63,168 bases of DNA from positions 1 through 63,168 of the forward strand of contig JBBSWW010000003.1 in NCBI GenBank assembly GCA_038046085.1, read 5' to 3'. Source of the DNA: Nanobdellota archaeon. GTDB lineage: Archaea; Nanobdellota; Nanobdellia; SCGC-AAA011-G17; GW2011-AR18. Under the pieces are notes generated by a model, which saw nothing but the letters and a program-made list of their open reading frames with translations, searched no databases and was not told the origin of the DNA. Shown piece after piece: positions 12,260 to 53,167 of the stretch. A program made the position numbers and the translations under genes. Positions within the stretch are counted from its first letter, which is position 1. Every line of letters begins with the position of its first letter.

Positions 12260-12364
12260 AAAATATAATAGAATTTATAATATATAAACCTGGCGAGTGT
12301 CTATGTCGTGTCCAGTGGAAAGAAGCTATTTTAAAGCATTTCCACAAGAAATTTTTTATAAAAA

Positions 12365-14137: not shown

Positions 14138-14244
14138 AAAAATAACGTTCTTAAAGAATTTATAAGGTTTATTGTTGGTTGTTTTTGTAAAATAATATAT
14201 TAATTGATAATAATTCTTAAATACTCAAAATTATTTGAGATAAT

Positions 14245-14778
14245 ATGAATAATATAGAATTTGAGATAAGAAGTTTTATTTCAAAAGATAAATACAATGA
14301 ATTAATAGAATTTTTCAAGAACAATGCAGAATTTTTGAATGAAGATTATCAAGAAACATATTACTTTGATACAAAAGAAGACCTAAGAATACAGAAAAAC
14401 AATTACTTCTCTAAAATCTGGATGAAGAAAGGAAAAATGCATGATGAACAAAGAGAAGAAATAGAAATAAAGTTTGAAAAAGAGGATTTTGAAAAACTAG
14501 AAAAAATGTTTACAAGCATAGGAATAAATGTAAATATAAAATGGTTCAGAACAAGACATAATTACAAATGGGATGATATAGTAGTATCAATAGATTATAC
14601 AAGAGGATATGGATATATAATAGAATTAGAAAAAATGAGCACAGAAGAGAATAAAACTAAAGTTTTAGAGGAATTAAAAAAACATTTCGAGATGTTAAAA
14701 ATACCATTAACTTCTAAAGAAGAATTTGACAACCAATTCAAGAATTATAAAGAGAACTGGAAGACATTAACTGCCTAG
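14245..14778 (+). CDS. CYTH domain protein (CyaB-like class IV cyclase / triphosphatase fold)
   Basis: IEFEIRSF (ExExK-type start), QETYYFD, DLRIQK, REEIEIKF, WFRTRHNYKW, SIDYTRGYGYIIELE. Confidence 0.7.
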   Translation: MNNIEFEIRSFISKDKYNELIEFFKNNAEFLNEDYQETYYFDTKEDLRIQKNNYFSKIWMKKGKMHDEQREEIEIKFEKEDFEKLEKMFTSIGINVNIKWFRTRHNYKWDDIVVSIDYTRGYGYIIELEKMSTEENKTKVLEELKKHFEMLKIPLTSKEEFDNQFKNYKENWKTLTA

Positions 14779-14812
14779 ATATACTTTTAAATATTTCCAA
14801 ATTTTACTTATC

Positions 14813-15400
14813 ATGGAAGATATACTATTTATTGTACATCCTTATACTTATAGAATTGATAATGATGGAGATGCAGCAATAACAGATCAATCTTCTGAAA
14901 TGGATTTTAAAATTGATTTACTTACAAAACAATTTTTTGAAAATAAAAATAGGGTTATAGTCTCATTTACTCATCATATTTTTAGTGAAATGTCTTTATT
15001 TGCCTTTTGTGAGGCATATGGCTTTATTTATGAGGATAATTTAGAGAAAATACTTATTCCAACAACTGGTGTTCCTTTAGGTACTAATAAACCTTTAAAT
15101 GTTGATGATGAAACATGGGCTAATTTAAGAATGGTTTATACTACAGAAGAAAAATTAAAAGATCTAGTCCCTTTTCATAGAGATGCTTATTTTATTGGTG
15201 GAATGTTGGAAGCTTGTGTTAGTAACTTTGCCATTTATTGGGATAAAAATCATAGAACCCAAAATAATAACTTGTTTTATATTCCTGAACTTTGTGTTTC
15301 ACAGAATGTTGAAGCTAGAATAAGGGCTGAAGATATTTTAAAGGAAAGAGATATTTTAGCATTGACATACGAAGAAGCAATGGAAAGACTAGCTAGATAA
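14813..15400 (+). CDS. hypothetical protein
   Basis: 195-aa ORF. FIGGMLEACV faintly recalls the isochorismatase-like G..T..CV motif. Codon usage (ATT/ACT/GGT/CCT) is opposite to other + strand genes. Confidence 0.5.
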   Translation: MEDILFIVHPYTYRIDNDGDAAITDQSSEMDFKIDLLTKQFFENKNRVIVSFTHHIFSEMSLFAFCEAYGFIYEDNLEKILIPTTGVPLGTNKPLNVDDETWANLRMVYTTEEKLKDLVPFHRDAYFIGGMLEACVSNFAIYWDKNHRTQNNNLFYIPELCVSQNVEARIRAEDILKERDILALTYEEAMERLAR

Positions 15401-15646
15401 CTTCTTTCTATAAGAAGAAAACCAATAATGAGAGTAAGCAGTATAACCTTCTAGTTCAAACATTATCACTTTATTACTTCCAATATAAGCATCTTTGATT
15501 TTCTTGACTGTATATTCTTTATTTGGAACTAATGGGTTAGATATAACTTTAGATAAACTCCTTATCTCCCAGGAATCTCTTACTTTAATTCTATCACCTT
15601 TAGAGATATTCAATGCATCCTCTAATCTTAATGATTTTTCTTCCAT
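15389..15646 (-). CDS. hypothetical small protein
   Basis: 85-aa ORF with no motif. Confidence 0.4.
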   Translation of the reverse strand: MEEKSLRLEDALNISKGDRIKVRDSWEIRSLSKVISNPLVPNKEYTVKKIKDAYIGSNKVIMFELEGYTAYSHYWFSSYRKKLSS

Positions 15647-15733
15647 AAAATCTACTATGAAACAGAATTAAAGAATCTTGAGAGGAAAAAACCGTAAAAA
15701 TCTTTATAAACATCGGAAATCCATAATAACTTA

Positions 15734-17083
15734 ATGGAAACTTTCTTGAAATATGCAGAAAAAAAGGGTTGTAATTATATAGAACTAAAAGAGTATTCTG
15801 GAAACAGGACAAGCATACAATTAGAGAATGAGAAAATAAAAGAATTATCAAAAGGAAATGCATTAATGTATGCAGCAAGAGTGATTTACAAGAACAAAGA
15901 GGGATTAGCTTATTCTAATAAGGAAAATTATAAAGAATTAATAGACAATGCAATAAAATTAGCTCATAAGAACAATAAGATAATAACAATAGATAAACTA
16001 CCAAAATTAAAAAAAGCAGTAAAGACAAAATTAAAGATAAATCCAGAAGATATAGACTTAGAAGAGAAGAAAAAAGATGTCATGAAACTAGATCTAAGAA
16101 AAGACTATAAGAAAATAAATTCATTAAGAGTAAATTATAGTGATAATAACAGAAAACTAAAGATAATTACTTCTGAAGGAAGAGAACTAACATGGAATGA
16201 TAATGTTGTAGGAATAGTATCAGTAGCATATGCAAAAGAGGGAAACAGACTAGAACAATTCTATAAATCAAAAATAAAACATCAAGGATACGAACTATTC
16301 AGGAAAGAGGCAACTGAACTAGTAAATAATTCAATGGAAATGGCAGAAAAGATGTTACAGTCTAAATTAGCTAAAGGAGGAAATTATCCAGTAATAATTG
16401 ATCAAGCATTAGGTGGAGTTTTTAGTCATGAAGCAGTAGGACATGGATGCGAGGCAGACAATGTATTACAAGGATCAACAGTAATGAATGAAAAGATAGG
16501 AAAACTAATAGCAAGTACTTCTGTAAATATAATAGATGATGGAAGTCTAGCAGATGGATATGGGTGGATAGCATTTGATGATGAAGGAGTTGAGGGACAG
16601 AAGACATATCTGATAAGAAACGGATTCTTAGAAGGGTATCTACATACAAGAGAGACAGCATCATTATTAAAAATGAAACCAACAGGAAATGGGAGAGCAG
16701 AGAGTCTAGGACATAGAGCAATACCAAGAATGACAAACACATATTTTGATAATGGAGATTCAAATTTCAATGAGATGTTGGGAAAAATAAAAGACGGATA
16801 TTACCTAAAAGGATCATCTGGCGGACAGGTAAACCCATCATCAGGAGAGTTCTTATTCAATGCACAATACGGATACAGAGTAGAGAACGGAGAAATAAAA
16901 GAACTAGTTAAGAATGTATCATTGACAGGAAATATATTAACAACATTAAAGAATATAAGTCTAGTAGGAAAAGATTTAGAATTCTCACAAGGAGTATGCG
17001 GAAAAGATGGACAGCATGCACCAGTAGGAGATGGAGCACCACATATAAAAATCGATAAAGCAAGATTAGGCGGGCAAGAATGA
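15734..17083 (+). CDS. tldD: TldD family metalloprotease
   Basis: HEAVGHGCEAD motif. 449 aa. Followed by a PmbA paralog with a 4-nt overlap. Confidence 0.85.
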   Translation: METFLKYAEKKGCNYIELKEYSGNRTSIQLENEKIKELSKGNALMYAARVIYKNKEGLAYSNKENYKELIDNAIKLAHKNNKIITIDKLPKLKKAVKTKLKINPEDIDLEEKKKDVMKLDLRKDYKKINSLRVNYSDNNRKLKIITSEGRELTWNDNVVGIVSVAYAKEGNRLEQFYKSKIKHQGYELFRKEATELVNNSMEMAEKMLQSKLAKGGNYPVIIDQALGGVFSHEAVGHGCEADNVLQGSTVMNEKIGKLIASTSVNIIDDGSLADGYGWIAFDDEGVEGQKTYLIRNGFLEGYLHTRETASLLKMKPTGNGRAESLGHRAIPRMTNTYFDNGDSNFNEMLGKIKDGYYLKGSSGGQVNPSSGEFLFNAQYGYRVENGEIKELVKNVSLTGNILTTLKNISLVGKDLEFSQGVCGKDGQHAPVGDGAPHIKIDKARLGGQE

Positions 17084-18381
17084 TAGAGAAAGTTGAGAGT
17101 TATATAAAGAAAAAAGGGATAGAAGAGTATGAAGTATTCTATGAAAGTTCAGAAAAGACAAGAGTGATATTACAAAGAGATAATATAGATTTCTTAAGCA
17201 AAGGATATGTAGATGGAATAGGAATAAGAGTATGCATAGACAAGAAACTAGGATTCAGCAGCACAATAGATCTAAAGAATTATGAGAAATGCGTAGATGA
17301 AGCAATAAAGATAGCTAAATTGAATAATAAAGATGAAAAATTCGTGAAATTCAATGATACAAAAATAAAATCAAAAAATAAAATCTTCTATGATAAGAAA
17401 TTAATGAGTAAAGATATAGAATACATGAATAAATATATCAAGGATTATATGAAAATAGTAAAAGATACAGATAAAGAGATAAAATTAAACGGAGGAGGAT
17501 TTGAGAAATCAACAAGAACTAAAAAGATAATAAACTCTGAAGGAATAAACCTAGAGAGCACTAATTGCAATAATACATTCTGGTGTGAACTAATGAAATC
17601 AAAAGAGAATACATTAGGATTTGGAGAGATGGAAAAAACATTACTGAAACCAGAAAAAGCAAAAGAACATATAAAAAGATTGTTAGAGTGCGAGAATAAA
17701 AATACGCCAGAAACACAAAATATAAACTTGGTATTACATCCAGAAGCATTCTCAGAATTATTAGGAGAGATATTCCTAGATGCAATAGATGCAGAAAGTG
17801 TGCAGTCAAAAAAATCAATATTACAGGATAAACTTAATAAGAAAATATTCCATAAAGATATAACAATAATAGATGACTCATTATCTAAAAACTTGATATT
17901 TTCAAGAGAATTCGATGATGAAGGAACAGCATCAAGAAAAACATCATTAGTAGAAAAAGGAGTATTGAAGAATTTCTTATATGATACATATCATGCAAAC
18001 ATAGATAAAGTAAAATCAACATCAAGTGCTTCAAGATCATATTCAAGCACACCATCAATATCTACAACAAATGTATTAATGAAAACTGGAAATAAAACAG
18101 AAGAAAAAATATTAAATTCTGTTGATAAATTAATATATGTAAAAAATCTAATAGGAACACATACAGTAGACAGCACAACAGGAGATTTCAGTTTGGGAGT
18201 AATGGAAGGGCATATCTATGAAAAAGGAGAGATGAAATATGCTGTAAAAGATACAATGATAGCAGGAAATTTCTATAAAATGATGAATGATATAATATCA
18301 ATAGGGAATAAACAGATACATACAGGAGGAACATATTTCCCAATAGTCTTATTAGGAAAAGTAAAAATGATAGGAAAGTAA
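17080..18381 (+). CDS. pmbA: PmbA/TldE family protein
   Basis: 433-aa paralog of TldD lacking the HExxxH motif, translationally coupled to tldD. C-terminal GDFSLGV...G motif. Confidence 0.8.
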   Translation: MIEKVESYIKKKGIEEYEVFYESSEKTRVILQRDNIDFLSKGYVDGIGIRVCIDKKLGFSSTIDLKNYEKCVDEAIKIAKLNNKDEKFVKFNDTKIKSKNKIFYDKKLMSKDIEYMNKYIKDYMKIVKDTDKEIKLNGGGFEKSTRTKKIINSEGINLESTNCNNTFWCELMKSKENTLGFGEMEKTLLKPEKAKEHIKRLLECENKNTPETQNINLVLHPEAFSELLGEIFLDAIDAESVQSKKSILQDKLNKKIFHKDITIIDDSLSKNLIFSREFDDEGTASRKTSLVEKGVLKNFLYDTYHANIDKVKSTSSASRSYSSTPSISTTNVLMKTGNKTEEKILNSVDKLIYVKNLIGTHTVDSTTGDFSLGVMEGHIYEKGEMKYAVKDTMIAGNFYKMMNDIISIGNKQIHTGGTYFPIVLLGKVKMIGK

Positions 18382-18413
18382 AGTTTTATTAACAGAATTT
18401 ATTTCTAAAGTTT

Positions 18414-18941
18414 ATGGATCTAAGTAAATGGAAGAAAATAGAAGAAAGACCGGTATATGAAGGATACCAGAAAATCTATGTTAAAAAATTTGAGATGCCA
18501 GATGGAAAGATAGGAGAATTTGAGGTAAGAAAATCAAAAGACAGTATAGGTATATTAGCAATAACAAAAGATAATCATGTAATAATCGCAAGAGAATTTA
18601 GAGTAGGAGTTGAAAAAGTATTAGATGAACTACCAACAGGAATAATGGATGGAAAAGAGGAACCAATAGAAGCAGCAAAAAGAGAATTATTAGAAGAGAC
18701 AGGATATACAGGAGAATTTGAATTTGTAACAAAATTCCCAAGATCACCATACGTAACTGGATATACATACTGCTTTGTTGCTAAAAACTGTGTAAAGATA
18801 AAAGAACCAGAAAATGGAGATAAAGAATACATAGAAGTAGTATTAAAACCATTAGAACAATTCAGAAAAGAACTAAGACAACCAAACAATACAATGGTAT
18901 TAACAGCATACTTAGGATTAGATTATTTAGGATTATTGTAA
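18414..18941 (+). CDS. NUDIX hydrolase (ADP-ribose pyrophosphatase-like)
   Basis: Nudix box GIMDGKEEPIEAAKRELLEETGY. Confidence 0.85.
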   Translation: MDLSKWKKIEERPVYEGYQKIYVKKFEMPDGKIGEFEVRKSKDSIGILAITKDNHVIIAREFRVGVEKVLDELPTGIMDGKEEPIEAAKRELLEETGYTGEFEFVTKFPRSPYVTGYTYCFVAKNCVKIKEPENGDKEYIEVVLKPLEQFRKELRQPNNTMVLTAYLGLDYLGLL

Positions 18942-18946
18942 AATTT

Positions 18947-19315
18947 TTATTTATTTACTAATAATGTTCTACTTATGTCTTCTATAATAATAAAATTTCT
19001 GTTTTCTGTGTCTATACTTCCCTTTATTGTTACAACTTCTTTTGAATCTGAAAGTTGTTTTAATAGATCATTTGCTTCATGATTACGAGTTAATAAATAA
19101 CCTTCTACTGAAACTTCTTCATGATAAAGCTTCATACAATATCCTACTATTTCTCTTATTTTATAATCTTCTCGTTTTCTGTCAGTATAATCTATTTGTG
19201 CTCTAAAAATTAAACCCTCACCGTATGTGTCACCATTTTGCTGAATTATTCTTGCAATATCTTCTAATGTTATCTTTTTATATTTATCAAATTCAGGATA
19301 AAAATTCATTGCCAT
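18947..19315 (-). CDS. hypothetical protein
   Basis: 122-aa ORF with no motif. A-ending codons despite being on the minus strand. Confidence 0.45.
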   Translation of the reverse strand: MAMNFYPEFDKYKKITLEDIARIIQQNGDTYGEGLIFRAQIDYTDRKREDYKIREIVGYCMKLYHEEVSVEGYLLTRNHEANDLLKQLSDSKEVVTIKGSIDTENRNFIIIEDISRTLLVNK

Positions 19316-19396
19316 ATATTATGTAAACTCAAAAAGTTTATTAAACTATCTTCTCTTATCTTATTAATACTTATATATTCAGATTATTGTAAAAGT

Positions 19397-19804
19397 TTAT
19401 TCTTTGTTCATCAATGATCTACAAAGAGAATCTACACTTTCATTATTACAATGTTCTATATATAATGGCTTGTCAAGTTCAAAGTAAGATGCTCTTAATG
19501 GCTGATATTGTGAATCAAAAAATGTCTTAATAAAAATAATTCCCTGTCTAGTTTCACTATTTGCGAAACAAAGTCTAGTAGATTCATAAGTTGTATCTTT
19601 TTCAGCTGATCTATAATCATAATATTCACATTGCATCAATGGTAAGCCTGGTCTGTTTAAATTTTCTCTACTTACAAATGCATTATTACGTTCAGGATGT
19701 GTTCTCTTATAAAGTTGAATAGTTGTTATGCTTGATATTAAACCAGTTCCAATAGATATTCCTAGAACTATTCCTAAATTTCTTATTGATTTTTTTAAAT
19801 CCAT
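19397..19804 (-). CDS. hypothetical membrane-anchored Cys-containing protein
   Basis: N-terminal TM LGIVLGISIGTGLISSITTI. Five Cys in the ectodomain. Confidence 0.45.
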   Translation of the reverse strand: MDLKKSIRNLGIVLGISIGTGLISSITTIQLYKRTHPERNNAFVSRENLNRPGLPLMQCEYYDYRSAEKDTTYESTRLCFANSETRQGIIFIKTFFDSQYQPLRASYFELDKPLYIEHCNNESVDSLCRSLMNKE

Positions 19805-19857
19805 AATTTTTTTATTATAAAAAAGTTTAAAAGCTTGACTAACAAGAAAATAATATC

Positions 19858-20196
19858 ATGAAGCAGGCAATAATCATACGTAAAGACTTGAAATTACCAA
19901 CAGGAAAAGCAGTATCTCAAGGAGCGCACGCAGCAGTAGAAGCTGTATTAAGAAGTGATAAAGATAAAGTCAAATCCTGGAGAGAGAGTGGAATGCCAAA
20001 AATAGTCTTGAAAGTAAATGATCTAAAAGAATTACAGAAATATAACCAGATAGCAAAAGACAATGGGTTAGTAACTGCTTTAATAACAGATGCAGGAAGG
20101 ACAACAGTAGAACCAGGAACAGTAACATGTCTAGCAATAGGGCCAGATAAAGAAGAAAAGATAGATAGAGTAATAAAAGAATTAAAATTATACTAA
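19858..20196 (+). CDS. pth2: peptidyl-tRNA hydrolase, archaeal type
   Basis: 112 aa. KQAIIIRKDLKLPTGKAVSQGAHAAV...PKIVLKV...ITDAGRTTVEPGTVTCLAIGP. Confidence 0.9.
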   Translation: MKQAIIIRKDLKLPTGKAVSQGAHAAVEAVLRSDKDKVKSWRESGMPKIVLKVNDLKELQKYNQIAKDNGLVTALITDAGRTTVEPGTVTCLAIGPDKEEKIDRVIKELKLY

Positions 20197-20243
20197 AATT
20201 CTTTAAAAAATAGTTTTATAAAACTTTTCTTATATATCATTAA

Positions 20244-20603
20244 ATGGCAAATAATACAGTACGTAATTTATTTGATGAGTGCTTAGCTAAATCAAATGCA
20301 GGATATGTATCCACACAAGGAAATACTACAACCGCAGATATTAGGCTGGGCAGTAATAATCTTAGAATATTGTATTCAAATGATGAATCATCTGAAAATC
20401 TTAAAGCAGAATTATATAATCATGAAGGAGAATTGGTACATGATTTATCGCTTTCCTGTTCATATAATAGGGCTGTAATGACAGAGGATTGCTATTTTAC
20501 ACCTACTTTTAAATCAATGTCACATATAAAAAATTTAAGGTCTAATTTCATAAGAGCTTTAGAACAAATACTATCGACAGAACAAATTTCTATGCTTTCT
20601 TAG
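20244..20603 (+). CDS. hypothetical protein
   Basis: 119-aa ORF with no motif. Confidence 0.4.
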   Translation: MANNTVRNLFDECLAKSNAGYVSTQGNTTTADIRLGSNNLRILYSNDESSENLKAELYNHEGELVHDLSLSCSYNRAVMTEDCYFTPTFKSMSHIKNLRSNFIRALEQILSTEQISMLS

Positions 20604-21207
20604 CAAAGACTTCAATCCAATCGTTTTCTTCGTCATTAGATTCAGTTGATTCAATAATAACAAAACCATTACTTATTAATAAATCATTCAATTCTTTTTT
20701 CTGGTAGAAAGCATAAAACCTAGGAGAATTGTCATATCTCTCTTTCTCAATAATCTGTTCACTATCACCCTTCTTGACAGCAATATATAAAATCCCATCT
20801 TTCTTCAATGCTTTAGAGAAATTCTTTATGAGTTTAGGAGCTTCAGATTTAGGAATATCAGCAAGAGTAGCCATACACCATATACCAACAAATTCATCAT
20901 CAGAAGACATCTCTAAAAGATTTCCTTTAATAGTATCAACATTTAGTTTCTTAGCTTCTTCAATCATACCATCAGAGAAATCAACTGGGATAACATCTAA
21001 ACCCTCTTCTTTAAGATAGTTTGAGTCTCTACCTGAACCAGATCCCGCATCTAATATTTTTCCTTTTTCAGGAAGCAATGATATAAAATTATTTAACTGG
21101 AACTGCATAATCTTTGATGAAGTATAGTCTGCATAAATCTTAGAAAACTTATTATAAGTCTGAATGGCTAATTGAATCTTATCCTTTGCAGAGAGTTCAT
21201 TATCCAT
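20590..21207 (-). CDS. class I SAM-dependent methyltransferase
   Basis: Motif I ILDAGSGSGRDSNYL followed by an acidic loop (VIPVDFSD). Confidence 0.75.
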   Translation of the reverse strand: MDNELSAKDKIQLAIQTYNKFSKIYADYTSSKIMQFQLNNFISLLPEKGKILDAGSGSGRDSNYLKEEGLDVIPVDFSDGMIEEAKKLNVDTIKGNLLEMSSDDEFVGIWCMATLADIPKSEAPKLIKNFSKALKKDGILYIAVKKGDSEQIIEKERYDNSPRFYAFYQKKELNDLLISNGFVIIESTESNDEENDWIEVFAKKA

Positions 21208-21321
21208 TGTCTATTTTTTAGTAACAACAATATTTAAGCTTTTTGATGTTATAGATCAAATTCTTCAATAAAAATTAATTTTACAGCAAGATTTATTAAT
21301 ATATTAATTTAAAATTCTAAT

Positions 21322-22392
21322 ATGCAGATAAAAGAAGAGGTGCGTGAGATAGTTTCAAATCTAGATATAAGAGATATTGCCTTCTTATTAGAGTGTTCTT
21401 TGAAAATAACAAAACAGAAAATGGCAAATAATATGGCACAGGAAGCTATAAACTGCTTGAAAAATTATGATCATTTCACAGACTTAATACTAGAATTCTA
21501 TTTATTACAGAATAAAAATCTAAGATGTGCTGCAATATCTGGAGTAGATAATGAGACAAGAAATGTATACATAGGAAGAAGAATAATTAGGGGATCAATA
21601 ATAGCACAGTCATTCATAAACAATAAGATAATATTCCATACAGAAGCAGAAAAAGAACCCTCAAGAAGAGGTGAATTCATAACAGTAAACAGGATAAAAT
21701 CATCACTAATAATACCTATAGAGCGATTAGGAGTGATAACAATAAACAGGTTTGACAAGAAAAAATTCAACTTACATCATATAAAATTCATAAAACTATT
21801 CATAGATGTAATAAAATCATCATTAGAATTAGCAATAGACAATGAGAAAAACTTTAATGCAGCAATAAGAGACCAATTAACTGGATTATATAACCACGGA
21901 TATTTTGCATTTGAATTAAAGAAATATATAGAGAATGCAAGAAGAGCAAACCACAATATAAGCCTGATAATGATAGATGTAGATTATTTCAAAAAATACA
22001 ATGATCAGAACGGGCATCCAAAAGGTGATGAGTTATTAATAAAATTAGGAAAGATATTAAGAGTCAATACAAGGTCAGCAGATATAGTTGCTAGATATGG
22101 AGGAGAGGAGTTTGCTGTTGTATTACATAATGCAAAATTAAAAGATGCAGTAAATAAGGCTGAACTATTAAGAAAAGCAGTATCAGAATATAAATTCTAT
22201 AATGAAGAAAGCCAGCCGGATAAGGATTTAACAATAAGCTTAGGAGTATCAAGTTTCCCAGACAATGCAGACAATGCTGAAGATCTAGTCATAAGAGCAG
22301 ATAAGGCATTATATTACAGCAAAAACAATGGAAAGAACAAAGTAACATCCTACAATAAAGTAAGTCATAAACTCTCAATAATATCACAATAA
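21322..22392 (+). CDS. GAF-like sensor + GGDEF diguanylate cyclase
   Basis: RDQLTGLYNHGYF, IMIDVDYFKKYND, active site RYGGEEF, I-site RSAD five residues upstream, and ADKALYYSKNNGKNKV. The N-terminal 170 aa are GAF-like. Confidence 0.85.
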   Translation: MQIKEEVREIVSNLDIRDIAFLLECSLKITKQKMANNMAQEAINCLKNYDHFTDLILEFYLLQNKNLRCAAISGVDNETRNVYIGRRIIRGSIIAQSFINNKIIFHTEAEKEPSRRGEFITVNRIKSSLIIPIERLGVITINRFDKKKFNLHHIKFIKLFIDVIKSSLELAIDNEKNFNAAIRDQLTGLYNHGYFAFELKKYIENARRANHNISLIMIDVDYFKKYNDQNGHPKGDELLIKLGKILRVNTRSADIVARYGGEEFAVVLHNAKLKDAVNKAELLRKAVSEYKFYNEESQPDKDLTISLGVSSFPDNADNAEDLVIRADKALYYSKNNGKNKVTSYNKVSHKLSIISQ

Positions 22393-23510
22393 TGCTTCCA
22401 AGAATATTTATTTTTTAATTTCTTAATATTATCAGAGAATTCTTTCTTCTTATCATTTTTATATAATCTTATAACAGCATCAGCCAAAGCTTTAGGATCT
22501 TTAGAATGAACAACAAAACCAGTCTTATTGTTTTCAACAAGTTCAGGAAGACCACCAACATCAGTACAAATTACAGGAGTGTTGAAATTATAAGATATTT
22601 GAATAGGACCAGACTGAGTAGCAGATGTATAAGGGAGAACTAAAACATCTGATCTAGCGAAATATTCACCAACAGAGTCATTAGGAACATAACTGTCTAT
22701 TACTTCAATATTCTTTTCAAGACCTAATCTTTTTATCTCATCAAAATAGAACTTCCTATTATTCCTTGATTTACCTGTCAAAAATTTAGTTAAAAACTTA
22801 TTAATAAAACCATTATTCTCCCAGAATTCACCAACAATCAATAATTTAATATCAATCTTTTTAATAATCATAGGCATAGCTTTAATCAAATAAATCAAGC
22901 CCTTATATTCCCTTATATAACCAAAGAAAAGAATCTTTTTATTATATCTGGATGTGAACTTAGAATTACTCTTAAACATATCATAAACAGGGTGAAAACT
23001 TAAAATAGTCTTTTTATCTTTATTAATCTTTAAAGAATCCTCAAAATCTTTATTAGAATGGACAATAAAGTATTCTACATTTTTAAAAAAAGCTTTTCTT
23101 AAAATATTATCTAAAAAAGTACCCTCATGCTGAAGAACATTATGAGCAATACAAACAATCTTTGACTTAGTCTTGATCAAATGTGAAATGGTAGTATAAA
23201 TCGGAGAAACAATAGGAGATAACCATGTAAAAATAACAATATCTGGATTCATATTATTAATAATCTTAGCAGCTTTAAACCAAGAAAAAGGATTATAGAA
23301 ATCAAGCAAGAAATCTTTATTTTCCTTAATCAAATGTTCGTCTTTTTTCTCAATAGGATCAATTGGATAGATAATCTTAGGATATTGTCTTTTCCAGCTA
23401 ATAACTTTAACTTCATTATTTTTAACTAATTCATTAACAAGACTAGAATTGAAATGAGACAAACCACCCTTATAAGGAGGAACTGGACCTATGACAACAA
23501 TCTTCTTCAT
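22365..23510 (-). CDS. glycosyltransferase family 4 (GT-B)
   Basis: VGGLPELVENNKTGFVV (EX7E-type region). 381 aa. Confidence 0.8.
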   Translation of the reverse strand: MKKIVVIGPVPPYKGGLSHFNSSLVNELVKNNEVKVISWKRQYPKIIYPIDPIEKKDEHLIKENKDFLLDFYNPFSWFKAAKIINNMNPDIVIFTWLSPIVSPIYTTISHLIKTKSKIVCIAHNVLQHEGTFLDNILRKAFFKNVEYFIVHSNKDFEDSLKINKDKKTILSFHPVYDMFKSNSKFTSRYNKKILFFGYIREYKGLIYLIKAMPMIIKKIDIKLLIVGEFWENNGFINKFLTKFLTGKSRNNRKFYFDEIKRLGLEKNIEVIDSYVPNDSVGEYFARSDVLVLPYTSATQSGPIQISYNFNTPVICTDVGGLPELVENNKTGFVVHSKDPKALADAVIRLYKNDKKKEFSDNIKKLKNKYSWKHYCDIIESL

Positions 23511-31448: not shown

Positions 31449-31946
31449 GTGGAAAAAATATTAATTGCTGGAATAGATCCTGGAACTGTAAGTGGTTATG
31501 CAATAATAGATATTGATGGAAATCTAGTATCAATAGGTTCTGAGAGAGAATTAACAACAGGAGACTTAATATTAAAGATAACAAAATATGGAAAAATATT
31601 TGCAATAGGGAGCGATGTATATCCATGTCCTAATCTAACTAATAAGATAGCAACAAGAATAGGAGCTAAAGTAATAAGTCCAGACCATGATCTAAAGTAT
31701 TTAGAGAAAATAAAAATAGTTGATACTTATTTAAAAAATCAGAAAAAAAGAATAGAGATAACAAACAAACATGAAAAAGATGCACTAGCAGCAGCATTAT
31801 ACGGGTTAAAAAGAATAAATGGGTTATTAAAAAAAATAGATGACCATCTAAAAGAACATGATAAATTATATCTTAAAGAACAAGTAAAAAGAAGAGTCTT
31901 AGTAGATAATGTACCAATAGTTGAAGCTTTGAGAGAACTATCTTAA
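31449..31946 (+). CDS. DUF460/COG2433-like RNase H-fold nuclease
   Basis: GTG start. IAGIDPGTVSGYAIIDIDGNLV resembles a RuvC/YqgF-like first strand. Family assignment from memory. Confidence 0.55.
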   Translation: MEKILIAGIDPGTVSGYAIIDIDGNLVSIGSERELTTGDLILKITKYGKIFAIGSDVYPCPNLTNKIATRIGAKVISPDHDLKYLEKIKIVDTYLKNQKKRIEITNKHEKDALAAALYGLKRINGLLKKIDDHLKEHDKLYLKEQVKRRVLVDNVPIVEALRELS

Positions 31947-32512
31947 TCATTATTTTTAATGTATCCTTTCCATTGACAAATAAAGAATAGGGTAATTATT
32001 ATACTTCCTATTAATAAAAATAAATCAATAGCGAATAATACTTCATTTGATGAATGTTTATTTATGCCCATTGTAAATAAATTTATTATAATTATAATAT
32101 AAAAAATTAATAATGCAAATATTAAAGATCTTAGGACTATTATTCCTTTAAGTTGTGTGTCTTCATTTGTTATACTATGTGCCTTATAATTAAACTTATA
32201 ATCTTCTTCTATATCTTTACAAATTTTATATTTTAAACACTTTTTCTTATTAGCTCTTTCTATCAACATCGTAAAATATATAACTATTAGAATGCCTATT
32301 ATTGATAATAAAAGTTTTGCTATAATCTCATCAAATATTATTGTTTCTGTTTTTTCTAATACTATTTTATTTAATATAATAATTGATAAACCTAATCCCA
32401 CAGAGATTAATGTCCATACCATTGTATTATAATGTTCAGCGGAATTTTGTGCTGTTTCATACTCTAATATAGCTATTTCAATATTTTTGTAATTCTTATT
32501 TTTCTTTATCAT
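31943..32512 (-). CDS. hypothetical integral membrane protein
   Basis: 189 aa with four hydrophobic segments. ATA-rich codon usage is atypical for the minus strand. Confidence 0.5.
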   Translation of the reverse strand: MIKKNKNYKNIEIAILEYETAQNSAEHYNTMVWTLISVGLGLSIIILNKIVLEKTETIIFDEIIAKLLLSIIGILIVIYFTMLIERANKKKCLKYKICKDIEEDYKFNYKAHSITNEDTQLKGIIVLRSLIFALLIFYIIIIINLFTMGINKHSSNEVLFAIDLFLLIGSIIITLFFICQWKGYIKNND

Positions 32513-32516
32513 TTTA

Positions 32517-33053
32517 TTATCTTAACCTAATAGGCTTATCTTTAGTTAAATCATAGACTTTAGAAGGTTTATTGTTTAAAGTACCACCTTCAACAATCAA
32601 ATCAACTTTATTTCTAATATCAGAAGAAATCTGAGAGGTGTCAGTAATTGGAGGCTCACCAGAAACATTAACACTAGTTGTAACAAAAGGAATAGGCAAT
32701 CTTTTAGTAAAACTCTTATTAGGAATACGAACACCAACAGTATCAGAATCATTATTGACTTCTTTACTGATAGCTTTCTTATTTTTAAGTCTAAGAATAA
32801 GAGTATATTTGCCTGGAAGTTTTTTAAGATAAAAATTAATCATCTTATTAGTAAAACAATTATCTTTAATCCATTTCTTATCAACAATGACAGAGAGAGG
32901 CTTAGAAGAATCTCTTTTCTTAATATCCTTAATTTTTTTGACTAAATTATCATCTAAAGCGTAACATCCAATACCCTAGATAGTATCTGTAGGATAGATA
33001 ATTACTTTGTTTTTAAAATTTGAGGTTACCATTAATAACTCCTGACATTTCAT
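32517..33053 (-). pseudogene. tsaC: tsaC/sua5 (YrdC-domain threonylcarbamoyl-AMP synthase) interrupted by in-frame TAG
   Basis: Minus-frame translation reads MKCQELLMVTSNFKNKVIIYPTDTI*GIGCYALDDNLVKKIKDIKKRDSSKPLSVIVD..., continuing into ORF 32517..32843 (VGVRIPN...TTSVNVSGEPP). TAG at 32976..32978 replaces the Tyr of the PTDTxYGxG motif. The start (33053 or 33032) is uncertain. Confidence 0.7.
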
Positions 33054-33945
33054 TAACTTTAGGATGAATCTCAATTTTCTCATTATCCCAAGTTTTTATC
33101 CTATTCTTTAAATCCTCTAAGTTCCTATTGAATTTATCTTTATTTTTTGCAAATATCATTCCATTAATGTCACATGTAAGAAGATAAAACTTTAATTTTC
33201 TAACTAAATTATTATTTTTAATATTCTCTATATAATTTACAAACATTTCATTACCAAAATCAGGCATATAAACAAGATCATAATCAGGATCACCTATGCC
33301 AACATCACCGAAGTCTATAATCCCAGAAACTTTATTCTTTTTATCAATGAAAACGTGATCTATACTAAGATCTGAATGCAATAATGATGGTTTATATTTA
33401 AAATTAAGTTCATTATTGAAGTATTCCTTAAATATCTGCTCAACTTTTTTAATTTCTTCTTTACTTAATCTAGGAAATATCTTTTTTCTTGCATTAATCA
33501 ATAATTTCTTAAAATGTTCTCTAAAATCTGTAATCTTAACACCACATTCTGTTGCTGATTCTATAGGAAAACTCTGTAACTCTCTTAAAAATTTAATAAC
33601 TTCATAAAATATTACCCTCTTTTCTTCTTCTGATAATTTTTTAAATATCTCCTTATCAAGTTCTTTGCCTTTAACTGGCTCGTATATCATGAAACTTTTA
33701 TTTTTGTATTTCCCTGAATAAATTACTTTAGGAATCTTTATACTAATATATTTTTCAAGTTTAGGAAGCAAAAGTGATTCTATATGATTTATTGATCTTT
33801 TATGCTTAGGATATCTCAATAAATATTTTTTATTAATAAAGTATGTGTCATTATCACAACCTGAAGCAAAATACTTTATTTCTTTAACTTTTAAATCTGG
33901 AAAGTTCTTCTTAATTGCATCTTTAACTTCATTAATATTAGGCAT
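33013..33945 (-). CDS. aminoglycoside-phosphotransferase-like (APH/ePK-like) kinase
   Basis: HSDLSIDHVFID catalytic loop and IIDFGDVGIGDPDYD. Confidence 0.7.
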   Translation of the reverse strand: MPNINEVKDAIKKNFPDLKVKEIKYFASGCDNDTYFINKKYLLRYPKHKRSINHIESLLLPKLEKYISIKIPKVIYSGKYKNKSFMIYEPVKGKELDKEIFKKLSEEEKRVIFYEVIKFLRELQSFPIESATECGVKITDFREHFKKLLINARKKIFPRLSKEEIKKVEQIFKEYFNNELNFKYKPSLLHSDLSIDHVFIDKKNKVSGIIDFGDVGIGDPDYDLVYMPDFGNEMFVNYIENIKNNNLVRKLKFYLLTCDINGMIFAKNKDKFNRNLEDLKNRIKTWDNEKIEIHPKVNEMSGVINGNLKF

Positions 33946-33976: not shown

Positions 33977-36031
33977 CTATCTAATAACCTTGCTAATATG
34001 ATTATCTTTCCTGATCTTAATGACATTATCTACAAAAGATTCTACTTTGTTCTCATGGCTTACAATAATAATCTGCCTCATCTTCAATTCTTTGATAATA
34101 TCCCTAATCTTATCTAACTGCTCTTCACTGAAACCATCAGTAGGTTCATCTAAAATAATTAAGTCTTTAGTATTAATAGAATTGCTTATATTATTAATAA
34201 CTTGGTTTAAAGCTAGTCTGTAAGCTAAAGCGCAAGAAGTCTTTTCTCCTCCTGAAAGATTTTCGTATTCAATATCATGAGAGTTCTGTTCAATAATAGG
34301 GGTAAATTCCTCGTCTAATCTAACTTTAAGAATAGATTCATCAATAAGCATAGAGAACCATTTCTGGAAAAGATCACTAAAATCAGAATGTAATTTAGAC
34401 ATAGTCTTCTTCTCAATAATATCAATAACATTAATGAAGAAAGAGTCAAGCCAGTCACATAATTTAATGTAATAATCTAACTTAGAACTTGCTTTTTCCT
34501 TATTTTCTATTTCAGATTTTAATAAGACTAATTCTTTCTCAATAAAATCTTTATCTTTATTATTAATAACAATAGATAATTCTAGTTTCTTCTGAGAATC
34601 TAATAATTGTTCAAGAAGTTTTTTGTTAATCAGGTAATTATTCTCCAATTCCTTATTTGATTCAATATCATTCTGAATAATCAATCTTTTATCATTAAGC
34701 TCTTTAATAATAAAGTCTAAGTCTTCATTCTCTTTTTTTAATTTATTTAAAGACTCTTTCTTAGATTCTAAATCCTTAATCCTTATCTTATTAATCTCAA
34801 AATCTCTTTCTTTATTCTTAAAATCTTGAATTAGGATTTTAATTTCTTTAATCTTTAAAACAAATTCTGATTCTTTAATTAGAAAATCTTTAATATCAAT
34901 ATCTAATCTCAATAAACTTTCATCTTCCCTAGAGATAACACCATTCTTGTAATCAACAGAGACTACTTGTTTGCATAAAGGACAATTATCCAACTTAGTT
35001 ATCTGATTCTTAATATCAATACTAGAAACTTTTTTAGTCCTCAAAGAAGAAATATTATTATTAACAATCTTAAGCTCCTTATCCATATCATCAACATTTT
35101 TTTCATTATCAATGATATTCTGTTTAACATCTTCAAAGTTTATTTCCTTAATATTGCTGGAGATATCTATAATCTGCTTCTCTAACTGAGATAATTGCAA
35201 AATATTCTTATTTTTAATATCCTCTTTACTCTTTATATTAAACTTGATAAGTTCAAAATCCTTCTTAATATCATTCAATCTCTTAATACTATTCTCGAAT
35301 TCAACTATCTTATCTTTATTCATTACTAATTCAGAGTTCAATAACAATAATTTTTCATTAAGCAATAAAATGTTTCCATAAATATTAGATAATTTTAATT
35401 CTTTTTCTTTAAACAATAACTTTTTAGGTTCAAGATCTGAGACAAAAAGTGATAAATCCTTTTTCTTCTGCTTAGCCTCTGTTAATATAATCTTTGAGTT
35501 CTCTTTAATCCTTTTATATTTATCAATATTGAAAACTTTCCTTAGAGTTTCTAAACGATATTCTTTCTCACCTAATAAAATAAGTTTCATTTCCTCTTGA
35601 GGAGTATAGACAGTATAACGATAAGTCAGAGATTTCTTAGACAAGGAATCCAGAGGATAGTTAAGAAGCTGAGTAACTCTTTGTTTAAGTTCAACAGGAG
35701 TCAGTTGCTGAGTAACATCATTAATCGATAAGAAACCAGAATCCTGAGTTATACCATTAACAGACCTTTTCAAAGTCCTCTTAACAGAAAAAACATTATT
35801 ATCAATATTAAAATCAAGAATTACATAACCATCATCAGAACCATTCCTCAATAAAGCATTACCAGATAATTCACCACGTTTAATACCGAATAAAGCAAAC
35901 TCAATAGATAAAAGAATAGTTGATTTACCTGAACCAATATCACCTGAAAGCATAATAGTACCTTCAGGAAACTTTATCTCTTCATCAGAATAACTCCTGA
36001 TATTCTTTATCTTAATTCTTTTAATAATCAT
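33977..36031 (-). CDS. rad50: Rad50 (SMC-like DSB-repair ATPase)
   Basis: Walker A GDIGSGKST, long coiled coil with CPLC zinc hook, signature LSGGEKT, Walker B LIILDEPTDGF. Confidence 0.85.
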   Translation of the reverse strand: MIIKRIKIKNIRSYSDEEIKFPEGTIMLSGDIGSGKSTILLSIEFALFGIKRGELSGNALLRNGSDDGYVILDFNIDNNVFSVKRTLKRSVNGITQDSGFLSINDVTQQLTPVELKQRVTQLLNYPLDSLSKKSLTYRYTVYTPQEEMKLILLGEKEYRLETLRKVFNIDKYKRIKENSKIILTEAKQKKKDLSLFVSDLEPKKLLFKEKELKLSNIYGNILLLNEKLLLLNSELVMNKDKIVEFENSIKRLNDIKKDFELIKFNIKSKEDIKNKNILQLSQLEKQIIDISSNIKEINFEDVKQNIIDNEKNVDDMDKELKIVNNNISSLRTKKVSSIDIKNQITKLDNCPLCKQVVSVDYKNGVISREDESLLRLDIDIKDFLIKESEFVLKIKEIKILIQDFKNKERDFEINKIRIKDLESKKESLNKLKKENEDLDFIIKELNDKRLIIQNDIESNKELENNYLINKKLLEQLLDSQKKLELSIVINNKDKDFIEKELVLLKSEIENKEKASSKLDYYIKLCDWLDSFFINVIDIIEKKTMSKLHSDFSDLFQKWFSMLIDESILKVRLDEEFTPIIEQNSHDIEYENLSGGEKTSCALAYRLALNQVINNISNSINTKDLIILDEPTDGFSEEQLDKIRDIIKELKMRQIIIVSHENKVESFVDNVIKIRKDNHISKVIR

Positions 36032-49162: not shown

Positions 49163-49822
49163 AACCTGTCTTGTCGCCATAATCATCCTATCTATATAAT
49201 TCTCAAAAAGAGATTTCCTTTCATATAAACTTCCAGAGATGTAACTTTCAAGATTAGGACATTCTATAGTATTAACTGATGAATCAACTAATTCTTGGTA
49301 TCTTGGAAAGATATAATTCCTAATGTCTGTAATAAAAACAACAGCAAGTTCACGGCATAATTTTTCTATCTCAAGTTTGATTGCTTTCTTATTATCACTT
49401 AAATTTATATTTTGAACTATCAATCTGTCACCTCTAAACATACGTTCTAAGTCTCTATTTGCATATGGGATTAACATATTATTTTTCATCTTTGAAAATA
49501 TATCCTTTATATTTCTGTCATTATATCTAGCAATCTTATTATAAACATCATTATTGAAACGTACAGCAATACCAGTCCTTCCATACTTATTTCTTATAAG
49601 TTCACAAAGATTAATAATTTTTATTTCTAAATCCTTAATACCATTCTTCTTTCTTTCCCTAACCATAACAATCAAGTTCCTAAAATTTAAAAGAAGTTCA
49701 CGAATCTCAGATGAACTCTTAAGAGAATCCAATTCTTCAAGAACATTAATAATTCTGGTAGTTCCTTCTATATCAATACCGATAAATCTTATTACATCAC
49801 CATCTTTTAGTAGTTTTAGCAT
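49151..49822 (-). CDS. hypothetical protein co-oriented with pepF
   Basis: 223-aa ORF starting 1 nt after the pepF stop. No motif. Confidence 0.5.
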   Translation of the reverse strand: MLKLLKDGDVIRFIGIDIEGTTRIINVLEELDSLKSSSEIRELLLNFRNLIVMVRERKKNGIKDLEIKIINLCELIRNKYGRTGIAVRFNNDVYNKIARYNDRNIKDIFSKMKNNMLIPYANRDLERMFRGDRLIVQNINLSDNKKAIKLEIEKLCRELAVVFITDIRNYIFPRYQELVDSSVNTIECPNLESYISGSLYERKSLFENYIDRMIMATRQVLHV

Positions 49823-49823
49823 T

Positions 49824-51599
49824 TTATTTAGTCAATACTTCAAGTTCATCAATCATACTATTAATAACAACAAAGCCCTGATCCCAAAACTTTTCAGATT
49901 CTAAGTCAATGTTTAATTCTTTACAGATCTCAGAAGGTTTCTTAGAACCACCATAAGATAAGAACTTAATATATTTAGGAACAAAAGACTTACCTTCTTT
50001 CTTATACATCTGATATAAAGCTAAAGTTAACAGATTACCGAAACTATAAGCGTAACAATAGAAAGGGGTTGCGAAAATATGGGGGATATAAGACCATTCT
50101 AGACTAAAGTTATCACTCACATCCATAGAGTCTCCAAACATCTCTTTAAGATTTTTAGAATAAATCTCAGAAATCTTGTCTATATTTGCACCTTCATCAA
50201 CTGCTTTATGCGCTTCCATTTCAAATAAAATAAAAAATGCTTGTCTAAGGACTGTAGCATATATATCGTCTAATTTAGAGGCTAAAAGTGCTTGCTTGTT
50301 TTTATTATTATCTTCTTTTTCTAAAAGCTTATCAGATAAAATCATCTCTCCAAAAACAGAAGCAGTCTCTGCAAGTATTAAAGGAGGGTGAGACAATAAA
50401 GTTGGAACATTATGAGTCAATAAATCATGAACTCCATGTCCTAATTCATGAGCTAAAGTACTAACGTCCCTCTCTTTTCCTGTAAAACTTATAAAAACAT
50501 AAGGGGTAATCTCAGGATGAATATCATAACAATAAGCTCCCCCTTTCTTTGAATCAGAGACTAAAGAGTGTATGTGTTCTTCATCTATTATCTTTGAAGC
50601 TAATTTTGCCATATCAGGAGAGAATTCATTATAACATGATAGAACCATCTTGACAGCTTCATCATATGAAATATTTTTTTCTTTAACTGTAATAGGAGCA
50701 TAAATATCATATCTTGTTAATTTTTTCATACCTAAAAGTTTAGCTTTTAATCTGAAATACCTATGAAAAACTTTACTATTCTTTTTAACAGAATTAAGCA
50801 TAGCATTAACTGCTTTATCACTAATATTATTACTTAAGTTTCTAGGCGAGATATAACTTTTATAATCTCTTAATTTCAAAGATTCATTTTTCCAGTCAGT
50901 AAGAATTGCCTTATATATTTCACCTATAACATCTTTATTATCTGCATATTTCTTAAGCAAAGCATCATATGAACTTTTTCTTTCTTCTGCTTTTGGGCTT
51001 CTAATGTATTTTGATAATTCACTATAATTCATCTTCTTTAATTTACCATCAACTTCGAATTCATAGACGAAACTTGTTGTAATCATATTATACAGATTAT
51101 TAAGAACAGATGAACCAGTTATGTCTTTGATATTAATTACCTTTTCCTCTTTTTCAGATAGAGTGTGAGGTTTCTGCAATCTTAATTTTTCAAAATAATA
51201 TTTATAATCTTTAGATTCTTTAATAATTCTATCAGCATTATTATCATCTAATTGCTTGAACCATAAACTGAAAAATATAATCCTATTAGAGACATCTGCT
51301 CCTAACTGACTAATCTTATTCTGCAAAGTTCTTGCATCCTGAGACTTTGTATCAGTAGAGAACCACATATATGAATAAGCACCAAGTCTTGAACAAATTT
51401 TTTCAACTTCCTCAATATCCTTTATTATCTGTAAAACTTTCTCAGAACTAATATTATTAGTTAATTTACTTTTAGAAGATTCAACTTTTTTTACTTTACT
51501 ATCTAGATCAGCAAGAACAGAATCAAACTCCTTACCTTCGTGAGATTTCAATAAATCCTTAAGATTCCATGAAGATTCCTTATACACTATTTTTTGCAT
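49824..51599 (-). CDS. pepF: oligoendopeptidase F (M3B)
   Basis: HELGHGVH zinc motif. 591 aa. Confidence 0.85.
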   Translation of the reverse strand: MQKIVYKESSWNLKDLLKSHEGKEFDSVLADLDSKVKKVESSKSKLTNNISSEKVLQIIKDIEEVEKICSRLGAYSYMWFSTDTKSQDARTLQNKISQLGADVSNRIIFFSLWFKQLDDNNADRIIKESKDYKYYFEKLRLQKPHTLSEKEEKVINIKDITGSSVLNNLYNMITTSFVYEFEVDGKLKKMNYSELSKYIRSPKAEERKSSYDALLKKYADNKDVIGEIYKAILTDWKNESLKLRDYKSYISPRNLSNNISDKAVNAMLNSVKKNSKVFHRYFRLKAKLLGMKKLTRYDIYAPITVKEKNISYDEAVKMVLSCYNEFSPDMAKLASKIIDEEHIHSLVSDSKKGGAYCYDIHPEITPYVFISFTGKERDVSTLAHELGHGVHDLLTHNVPTLLSHPPLILAETASVFGEMILSDKLLEKEDNNKNKQALLASKLDDIYATVLRQAFFILFEMEAHKAVDEGANIDKISEIYSKNLKEMFGDSMDVSDNFSLEWSYIPHIFATPFYCYAYSFGNLLTLALYQMYKKEGKSFVPKYIKFLSYGGSKKPSEICKELNIDLESEKFWDQGFVVINSMIDELEVLTK

Positions 51600-51638
51600 A
51601 TCATTAAAGAAATAATTTTAATTATAAAGTTTATGGAT

Positions 51639-51911
51639 TTACTTCTTAACATAAACTGCTACATGATTGCCTGAATTTAATTCCTTTCCTGAAGAATCAT
51701 AAGCTTGTTCTAATCTTACTTCTGAATAGAGTTTTTGATATTCATCTCTAACTTTTTAACTATGAGGTATTATCTCTGTCCTATTTCCAGCGCCACTGAT
51801 TCCTGGAAAACCTTGAGCAAGTTCATGATCTGCCACCGAAACATTTCTCAAAAATTTAAATCCTTCTTCAGATAATCTCTTGTCCAATGAAGCTTTTGTA
51901 TCTTTATCCAT
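51639..51911 (-). pseudogene. 90-codon reading frame interrupted by in-frame TAA (or a 51-aa ORF plus remnant)
   Basis: MDKDTKASLDKRLSEEGFKFLRNVSVADHELAQGFPGISGAGNRTEIIPHS*KVRDEYQKLYSEVRLEQAYDSSGKELNSGNHVAVYVKK*. TAA at 51756..51758. Confidence 0.35.
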
Positions 51912-51978
51912 ATTTTTTAAGAGTTATTAAACTTTAAAAGATTTATTATTATATAATATGCTGTAATAAAGTATAAAT

Positions 51979-52428
51979 ATGAGAAAATACTTTAATTTTA
52001 TAATGGGAAAAATAGATGCTAAGTTTCTTGTAAGAAGAGAAGAATTAAGTGATTTTATTGAACAAAATAACATTCCAACTGAAGAACAAATATCATTATT
52101 TATAGCTACAGCAATGTATTTTCAAGATAAAGGAGTTGTTAATGGAGAAAATTATTTATGGGTTTATGAATCAAGAGATGGATCTGAATTAGTTTTAGCA
52201 AATGCTGATGGAAAGCTTGCAAGACATATGGGCGAGGCAATGGGATTTGTAGGTCATAAAAATGATGCTTTAGATCCTAAAGATGAGAGATTAAGATTTC
52301 ATAGATATGAAAGAATACAGATAAAATATAATGAACGTCATTTAATAACATATGATCAAATCTATAGGTATAATCGTACACTTGGAGAAAGAACATCTTT
52401 ATTAAAACTTCAACCAAAACATTTATAA
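51979..52428 (+). CDS. hypothetical protein
   Basis: 149-aa ORF with no motif. Confidence 0.45.
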   Translation: MRKYFNFIMGKIDAKFLVRREELSDFIEQNNIPTEEQISLFIATAMYFQDKGVVNGENYLWVYESRDGSELVLANADGKLARHMGEAMGFVGHKNDALDPKDERLRFHRYERIQIKYNERHLITYDQIYRYNRTLGERTSLLKLQPKHL

Positions 52429-52454
52429 AGTTCCAGACTTGTAAAATATTAAAG

Positions 52455-53135: not shown

Positions 53136-53167
53136 GGATATAGATTTTATTTTCTTATATTAAAAAA

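Follow-up and report, generated by a model that had tools for sequence, protein, structure and literature searches.

The stretch of DNA analyzed here (the window; 63,168 nucleotides) belongs to a 100.6-kb contig of an archaeal genome that comprises 801,723 bp in 40 contigs, has a G+C content of ~29%, and is 82% complete. The nearest named relative is "archaeon GW2011_AR18" (hereafter AR18), whose proteins carry the NCBI label Candidatus Woesearchaeota. Thus, the organism is a small-genome DPANN archaeon of the Woesearchaeota type from groundwater, with a genome of ~0.8-1 Mb. On the minus strand of the window, a string of genes runs from rad50 through a gene for a phosphotransferase and tsaC to a gene for a membrane protein (Table 1). 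Compared with the sister species, the APH-type kinase gene and the membrane-protein gene have been inserted around tsaC.

Table 1. Genes and features discussed in the text, with positions in the window
Feature	Position	Strand	Remarks
DUF460 gene	31449..31946	+	Convergent; conserved right-hand synteny anchor
Multi-pass membrane protein gene	31943..32512	-	189 aa; lies 4 nt past the tsaC stop, in the same direction
tsaC	32517..33032	-	Single-domain threonylcarbamoyl-AMP synthase; 171 codons, broken at codon 19; PF01300, TIGR00057, catalytic tetrad; intact form P0002
Residual ORF of tsaC	32517..32843	-	108 codons; begins at the first downstream ATG; lacks PTDTxYG and KxR; P0010
In-frame TAG	32976..32978	-	Tyr19 to stop; base 32976 polymorphic (plus strand C = TAG, A = TAT)
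APH-family phosphotransferase gene	33013..33945	-	Upstream of tsaC, 20-nt overlap; absent at this position in the sister species
rad50	33977..36031	-	SMC-type ATPase; heads the conserved rad50-tsaC linkage; terminator TAG
kae1	46294..47298	-	tRNA threonylcarbamoyltransferase; intact; consumes the TsaC product

The minus-strand translation of tsaC reads ...VIIYPTDTI*GIGCYALDD..., in a frame that extends from an ATG at 33032-33030 to a TAA at 32517. If the stop is read through, the product matches PF01300 with an E value of 4.6e-40 (137.4 bits; cut-off 25.1) and TIGR00057 with 137 bits (cut-off 123.2) in profile searches. It is of the TsaC type, being 171 aa in length with a lone PF01300 domain and no C-terminal SUA5 domain. 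The solved structures nearest to this product are 1jcu (MTH1692) and the Sua5 catalytic domains 9d3h, 6f87, and 2eqa (E values from 5.6e-23 to 5e-14). The tetrad K38-x-R40/S120-x-N122 is present, and among the 118 closest homologs that were aligned the K, S, and N residues are found in all and the R residue in 113. The interrupted position is occupied by Tyr in every one of these 118 homologs. The reading of the minus strand thus confirms the starting observation of an in-frame TAG at the conserved Tyr of a PTDTxYGxG motif, and the stop falls on a strongly constrained site.

Placing the start of the gene at the ATG at 33032-33030 makes the TAG codon 19 of 171. This start lines up with the GTG that begins the nearest public ortholog; gene calls made on contigs carrying an intact allele likewise begin tsaC at ATG 33032. 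The start overlaps the 3' end of the upstream kinase gene (stop TAA at 33013-33015), as had been presumed, and the extent of the overlap is 20 nt. Besides the TAG, tsaC carries no other lesions, and the frame downstream is undamaged. The single-SNP background described below implies a young mutation, for which such an absence of secondary decay is expected.

Because a stop codon that differs from a sense codon by a single base might be an error carried into the MAG, with A (TAT) being the true base everywhere, the allele was sought in other data from the same environment. Ten public groundwater runs (Logan contigs) hold the tsaC stretch at 99-100% identity. Alleles were read on the assembled contigs, which give no within-sample allele frequencies. 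Runs X1, X2, X3, and X4 carry C (TAG) at 32976 and show 0 differences from the window over 1001 nt, on contigs of 4.4-13.4 kb at depths of 7-12.5. Runs X5-X10 carry A (TAT), and this base is their sole difference from the window stretch. More diverged contigs all have A at 32976. Several samples therefore do contain TAT, as an artefact would require. However, TAG is reproduced by independent assemblies in five data sets, with TAT in nine or more others, and it was assembled in no fewer than five independent runs or assemblies, which come from two studies (contigs of 4-70 kb, depths of 3.7-12.5). In a protein collection, the intact 171-aa product (P0002) is encoded on 11 contigs and the truncated 108-aa product (P0010) on eight.

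The record names identify the sampling site as the Hainich Critical Zone Exploratory, and the split between alleles tracks sample identity. TAT is found in the assemblies Hain_H51_01um R1, R2, and R3, whereas TAG is found in Hain_H52_01um R1 and R2. Well H52 taps the upper aquifer, which is anoxic and slow-flowing and has the longest water residence time, and well H51 draws on the lower aquifer, which is oxic and karstified; in January 2019, 0.1-µm fractions were collected in triplicate from both wells (PMC8672522). A later series of SRR runs holds both alleles (TAG in one run, TAT in four), and reads from 2022 at Hainich have been deposited at NCBI (PMC12960796). If the SRR runs represent this 2022 campaign, then both alleles would have lasted for approximately three years. 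Runs X4 and X8, which share one sample code, differ in their tsaC allele. Thus, the alleles may also co-occur within one sample, and the names of the ENA assemblies may overstate how cleanly the alleles are partitioned between wells.

The site contains no homopolymer or repeat. Overall, TAG/TAT at 32976 is a real polymorphism, and there is almost no chance that the TAG is an artefact. A sequencing or consensus error, which had been listed among the possible explanations, is refuted, since TAG was obtained at depths of 7-12.5 in several runs and assemblies that are independent of one another. The proposed check for a sense codon at 32976..32978 did uncover TAT, but in other samples of the population, and so it revealed a polymorphism rather than a mistake. 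The window allele lacks an uninterrupted frame spanning the whole domain, which the population does possess in its TAT allele (P0002).

The age of the TAG allele can be judged from the sequence that surrounds it. Two TAG runs and two TAT runs were compared over 60 kb of the window. Once two variable patches are set aside, position 32976 is the only one in ~44 kb at which the TAT contigs of X8 (29.6 kb) and X7 depart from the window. Run X1, which carries TAG, shows another five SNPs. The populations are thus close to clonal and have very few point differences, one of which is the nonsense change. The sister species, AR18, has TAT at this codon and the position is an invariant Tyr, so the TAG allele is the derived one. 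Relative to AR18, tsaC has a dN/dS of 0.16 at a dS of 0.41 (rad50, 0.04; DUF460, 0.07), and the gene has thus been under purifying selection since the split between the two species. In other words, a derived and presumably disabling mutation is found in a formerly constrained gene.

Some parts of the window are far more variable. SNP clusters and small indels in a hypervariable patch at 49478-53680 (dense at 51879-51931) vary between runs, in combinations that are independent of the tsaC allele. A second region, from ~11,860 to 23,000, is missing at ≥97% identity from X4 and X8, and is present to ~19 kb in X1 and to ~22.4 kb in X7. Within the population, this stretch resembles a flexible genomic island. 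Hypermutation of the type caused by diversity-generating retroelements was considered as a source of the tsaC SNP and was rejected, since the change is isolated and is not part of an adenine-biased cluster.

As predicted from the reading frame, a coding-strand T-to-G change that converts TAT to TAG, and hence Tyr19 to a stop, would end the enzyme at residue 18, before any of its catalytic elements. Function might be retained in a shortened TsaC if translation re-initiates at the ATT of codon 21 or the ATG of codon 64, and gene callers do emit both a 151-aa protein (P0004) that starts at the ATT just after the TAG and the 108-aa P0010. Both products lack the invariant PTDTxYG, though, and the 108-aa one also lacks K38-x-R40; activity is not expected from this 108-codon ORF. 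No homolog of the 118 aligned has so late a start. Synthesis of TC-AMP by Sua5 depends on the Thr-binding residue and on those of the KxR motif (PMC10321239). A functional shortened enzyme is therefore a most improbable outcome. The TAG allele is most likely null, because neither the 18-residue peptide nor the restart products carry PTDTxYG and the product from ATG 64 is also without KxR.

A full-length enzyme could still be made from the TAG allele if the codon were decoded. Programmed recoding would require that the TAG be read site-specifically or by a suppressor or Pyl-type tRNA, and the tRNA complement of this genome leaves some room for the latter. Only 14 tRNA genes are detectable at the Rfam threshold, many with introns, and a CUA tRNA could be missed among them. 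ARAGORN finds 4-5 tRNA genes, and several introns lie at non-canonical positions, such that standard tools miss most of the tRNA set. Relaxed ARAGORN thresholds returned 312 spurious "tRNAs" with kilobase introns, and this output was dropped. Neither ARAGORN at default stringency nor Rfam detected a tRNA with a CUA anticodon in this 82%-complete genome, whose 14 detectable tRNAs are rich in introns.

Other observations weigh against recoding. TAG is a common terminator, ending 127 of the 758 long ORFs in the genome (17%) and 11 of the 56 in the window; rad50, which belongs to the gene string of tsaC, is one of these. The TAG terminators that had been cited at 3693, 14776, 33977, and 53133 are all real, and the earlier argument that global recoding of TAG is unlikely was correct. 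Moreover, the codon is polymorphic with TAT and the stop is absent from all orthologs. Of the hallmarks of a recoding signal, neither a conserved stop (Tyr in 118 of 118 homologs) nor a stimulatory RNA structure (z = 0.63) is found. Programmed recoding is thus very improbable.

Leaky termination is a more serious alternative, albeit still an unlikely one. Here, the UAG at codon 19 would be read by near-cognate tRNAs (Tyr, Gln, or Lys) at a rate that is low but still high enough to supply TsaC in catalytic amounts, which would make the allele nearly neutral instead of null. Near-cognate readthrough of UAG in eukaryotes inserts Gln, Tyr, and Lys, and insertion of Tyr at tsaC codon 19 would restore the wild-type enzyme.

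A reason to entertain this possibility comes from the termination machinery. The sole aRF1 of the genome (contig C2:30140-31207, plus strand, outside the window) reads ...PGKLQVGGFSQARYARL..., with GGF in place of the universal catalytic GGQ and NIKD in place of NIKS; the YxCxxxF motif is kept. The GGF variant, which might slow termination, occurs in all four genomes of the genus. GGW is found in the sister genus g6 and GGQ in genera g10 and g13 of the same family; each genome has one aRF1. No description of a GGF variant was found in the literature searched. In many members of the family, the aRF1 (e.g., P0138, P0143, and P0162) contains an intein immediately after the third residue of the motif. 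The junctions have the form GGW|C...HN|SQQRY in this clade, whereas GGQ|C...HN|S is seen elsewhere.

A scan for split genes was carried out with a best-of-six-frames test, because a codon score computed against shifted frames only was swamped by antisense shadow ORFs. Two more in-frame stops in conserved frames were found, both of which are fixed in the four runs examined. The first is a TAG at C37:25413-25415 in a gene for a conserved hypothetical protein of 559 aa (C37:24636-26312). Eight homologs run through this site, six of them with Glu, which suggests that the stop arose by a change from GAG to TAG. The gene is accessory: none of the three congeners has it, and one further member of the family carries an intact copy. 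Conservation of this TAG in the sister species would have favored recoding, but the gene is absent there. The second is a TGA at C32:1748-1750, inside the HTH_40 domain of a reverse-transcriptase gene (RVT_1 + HTH_40). At positions 3844-4171 of this 4.2-kb contig, run X8 differs at 19 positions, 11 of which are adenines, and the locus may be a diversity-generating retroelement with its variable region. A sporadic accessory gene and a retroelement gene are typical targets of ordinary decay, and we read these two stops as a modest pseudogene load rather than as evidence for recoding.

Although the GGF motif, these additional stops, and the undamaged frame past the tsaC TAG are all compatible with leaky termination, several lines of evidence weigh against it. 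The stop is not conserved, as shown by the Tyr in 118 homologs and the TAT in the sister species, and the same codon is used to end 17% of long ORFs. Back-up stops within five codons are present in 27-43% of genes compared with ~34% expected from base composition, and so are not enriched. The 161-nt fold around the site is no better than those of shuffled sequences (z = 0.63). The other gene interrupted by TAG is a sporadic accessory gene missing from congeners, as in ordinary decay, and recency explains the undamaged downstream frame of tsaC equally well. There is no positive evidence for leaky readthrough at the tsaC TAG. A broader version of the idea holds that the entire clade with GGF or GGW aRF1 proteins terminates slowly and routinely reads through premature stops at a useful rate, in which case the tsaC TAG, the C37 TAG, and the C32 TGA would be buffered rather than null. 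We regard this version as a long shot. If it were true, then this lineage would show a tolerance of nonsense mutations that other cells lack.

The original prediction called for a search for a second tsaC/sua5 copy, and none was found; PF01300 matches the genome at the tsaC locus only, with the proviso that a divergent copy might lie on the sequence missing from this 82%-complete genome. The Kae1 protein that uses the product of TsaC is intact (252.7 bits), in agreement with its initial annotation at 46294..47298, and Bud32 is intact as well (198 bits; cut-off 125). Pcc1, a small and fast-evolving protein, was not detected in the 82%-complete genome.

A survey of 61 genomes from the same archaeal order, 36 of them of high quality, places the window in a wider context. 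Bona fide TsaC/Sua5 proteins are encoded by 21 of the 61 genomes and by ~15 of the 36 high-quality genomes, leaving ~21 of the latter (~58%) without TsaC. There are 18 genomes at least 95% complete that lack the protein, including one that consists of a single contig and one of two contigs. By contrast, Kae1 is present in 57 of the 61 genomes and in all 36 of high quality. Its motifs H-x-x-x-H, SGANTQ, and DNG are the same in relatives that lack tsaC.

The position of the gene in these genomes is informative. In five families of the order, mre11-rad50 directly precedes tsaC on the same strand. KEOPS has been reported to act in homologous recombination, and the linkage of mre11-rad50 to tsaC is unexpected in light of these reports. 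Since the rad50-tsaC linkage spans five different families, tsaC is ancestral at this locus, and its patchy distribution reflects repeated losses. In one relative that is 98% complete (G010), rad50 adjoins DUF460 and tsaC is cleanly gone, and in another at 98% completeness (G005), a gene for a DEAD-box helicase fills the tsaC slot. Such independent losses in relatives suggest that the function of TsaC is dispensable in the lineage.

Not every candidate for loss in the survey held up. An apparent in-frame TAG in the tsaC gene of G052 was rejected as a recurrence, since this TAG simply terminates an intact gene. The absence of tsaC from G001, a member of the same genus, is uninformative, since DUF460 is also missing and an assembly gap is the probable cause. 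In G010, kae1 (G010:C29:2245-3213) contains an in-frame TGA and its frame is broken at approximately residue 272, which may represent a further step of pathway decay in a relative that has lost tsaC. Separately, ORFs of ~570-600 aa in seven genomes (G006, G007, G009, G016, G025, G039, and G060) weakly match YrdC-like and Kae1-like profiles. These look like TobZ/NodU-type carbamoyltransferases rather than t6A enzymes, and their occurrence does not track the absence of tsaC.

On balance, the window probably carries a segregating null allele of tsaC, whose loss is under way in a host-dependent DPANN archaeon of the Woesearchaeota type. The mutation would have struck the single tsaC gene, and the resulting allele would be segregating in one near-clonal species population, with TAG apparently the assembled majority base in well H52 and TAT that in H51 and most other samples. 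The mutation would be tolerated because the lineage can do without a TC-AMP synthase of its own. In most genomes of the order, tsaC is already gone from the rad50-linked locus, and all appear to keep Kae1 with its active site intact, so the window may capture the beginning of a process of loss that has run to completion in relatives. The suggestion that this gene is a very recent pseudogene in a host-dependent cell is supported by the sole SNP in ~44 kb, its derived state, the lack of a second copy, and the repeated loss of the gene from the same locus in relatives.

This reading has implications for the physiology of the organism. TAG carriers reached a majority in at least one well and have apparently persisted, which points to little or no fitness cost and fits the repeated loss of tsaC in relatives. 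Carriers of the TAG allele would be fully viable, and t6A function would be either dispensable or supplied by a host. It has been reported that the only organisms without sua5/tsaC are obligate symbionts, among them DPANN ectosymbionts in which KEOPS is retained (PMC10321239). The retention of Kae1 without TsaC can be explained by the finding that archaeal KEOPS has an essential role that is independent of the level of t6A (PMC10989989).

Two observations fit gene loss less comfortably. A dN/dS of 0.16 argues that tsaC mattered in the genus until recently, and hence against the loss reading. It is also a little unexpected that the sole SNP in ~44 kb should be a nonsense change at an invariant residue, which counts against pure drift. 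A search for RNA runs that hold tsaC found none.

The loss of tsaC from DPANN symbionts and the existence of nonsense polymorphisms are each of a kind already known. The DPANN ectosymbionts Nanoarchaeum equitans and Nanobdella aerobiophila lack sua5/tsaC and have KEOPS, and the gene has gone undetected in Undinarchaeota and Huberarchaea (PMC10321239, Pichard-Kostuch et al. 2023). The archaeon studied here resembles N. equitans and N. aerobiophila in being a small-genome DPANN member that would have lost TsaC function while keeping Kae1 and Bud32, with a link to host dependence. It differs in that the loss is incomplete, consisting of a single nonsense SNP that is polymorphic between two wells. 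The Woesearchaeota-type order is not named in the text of PMC10321239 as lacking the gene, whereas here ~58% of its high-quality genomes are found without it.

The intact protein is similar to single-domain TsaC/YrdC TC-AMP synthases (TIGR00057; 1jcu, and the Sua5 structures 9d3h, 6f87, and 2eqa) in its (Y/F)PT(D/E)(T/S)xYG and KxR/SxN motifs and, judged by sequence, in its fold family. Unlike those enzymes, the window allele needs readthrough to produce the domain, and the enzyme is a predicted one, known from its sequence. There is also a parallel with reductive evolution by segregating pseudogenes in host-dependent microbes, in which a disabling point mutation strikes a gene made redundant by lifestyle and no further decay has yet set in. 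In this instance, though, the gene is among ~60 near-universal proteins, and intact and null alleles occur in a near-identical background. Near-cognate readthrough as seen at eukaryotic UAG codons could yield the wild-type Tyr at codon 19, but the tsaC stop is unconserved and has no stimulatory context.

TsaC/Sua5 is among the ~60 proteins held to be universal, and lack of it has been suggested to mark obligate symbionts (PMC10321239). The survey of the order extends the published pattern in which sua5/tsaC is absent only from obligate symbionts. What is new is that the first step of such a loss has been caught as a polymorphism structured by well in a near-identical background, that the contrast within the order has been quantified, with Kae1 always present and TsaC mostly absent in high-quality genomes, and that tsaC has a conserved linkage to rad50. 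Two neighboring aquifer wells would thus offer a natural pair of tsaC+ and tsaC- populations in the same genetic background. Whether these cells translate without t6A, or instead obtain TC-AMP, the enzyme, or the modified tRNA from a host, is a long-standing question that could thereby be tested directly in the field.
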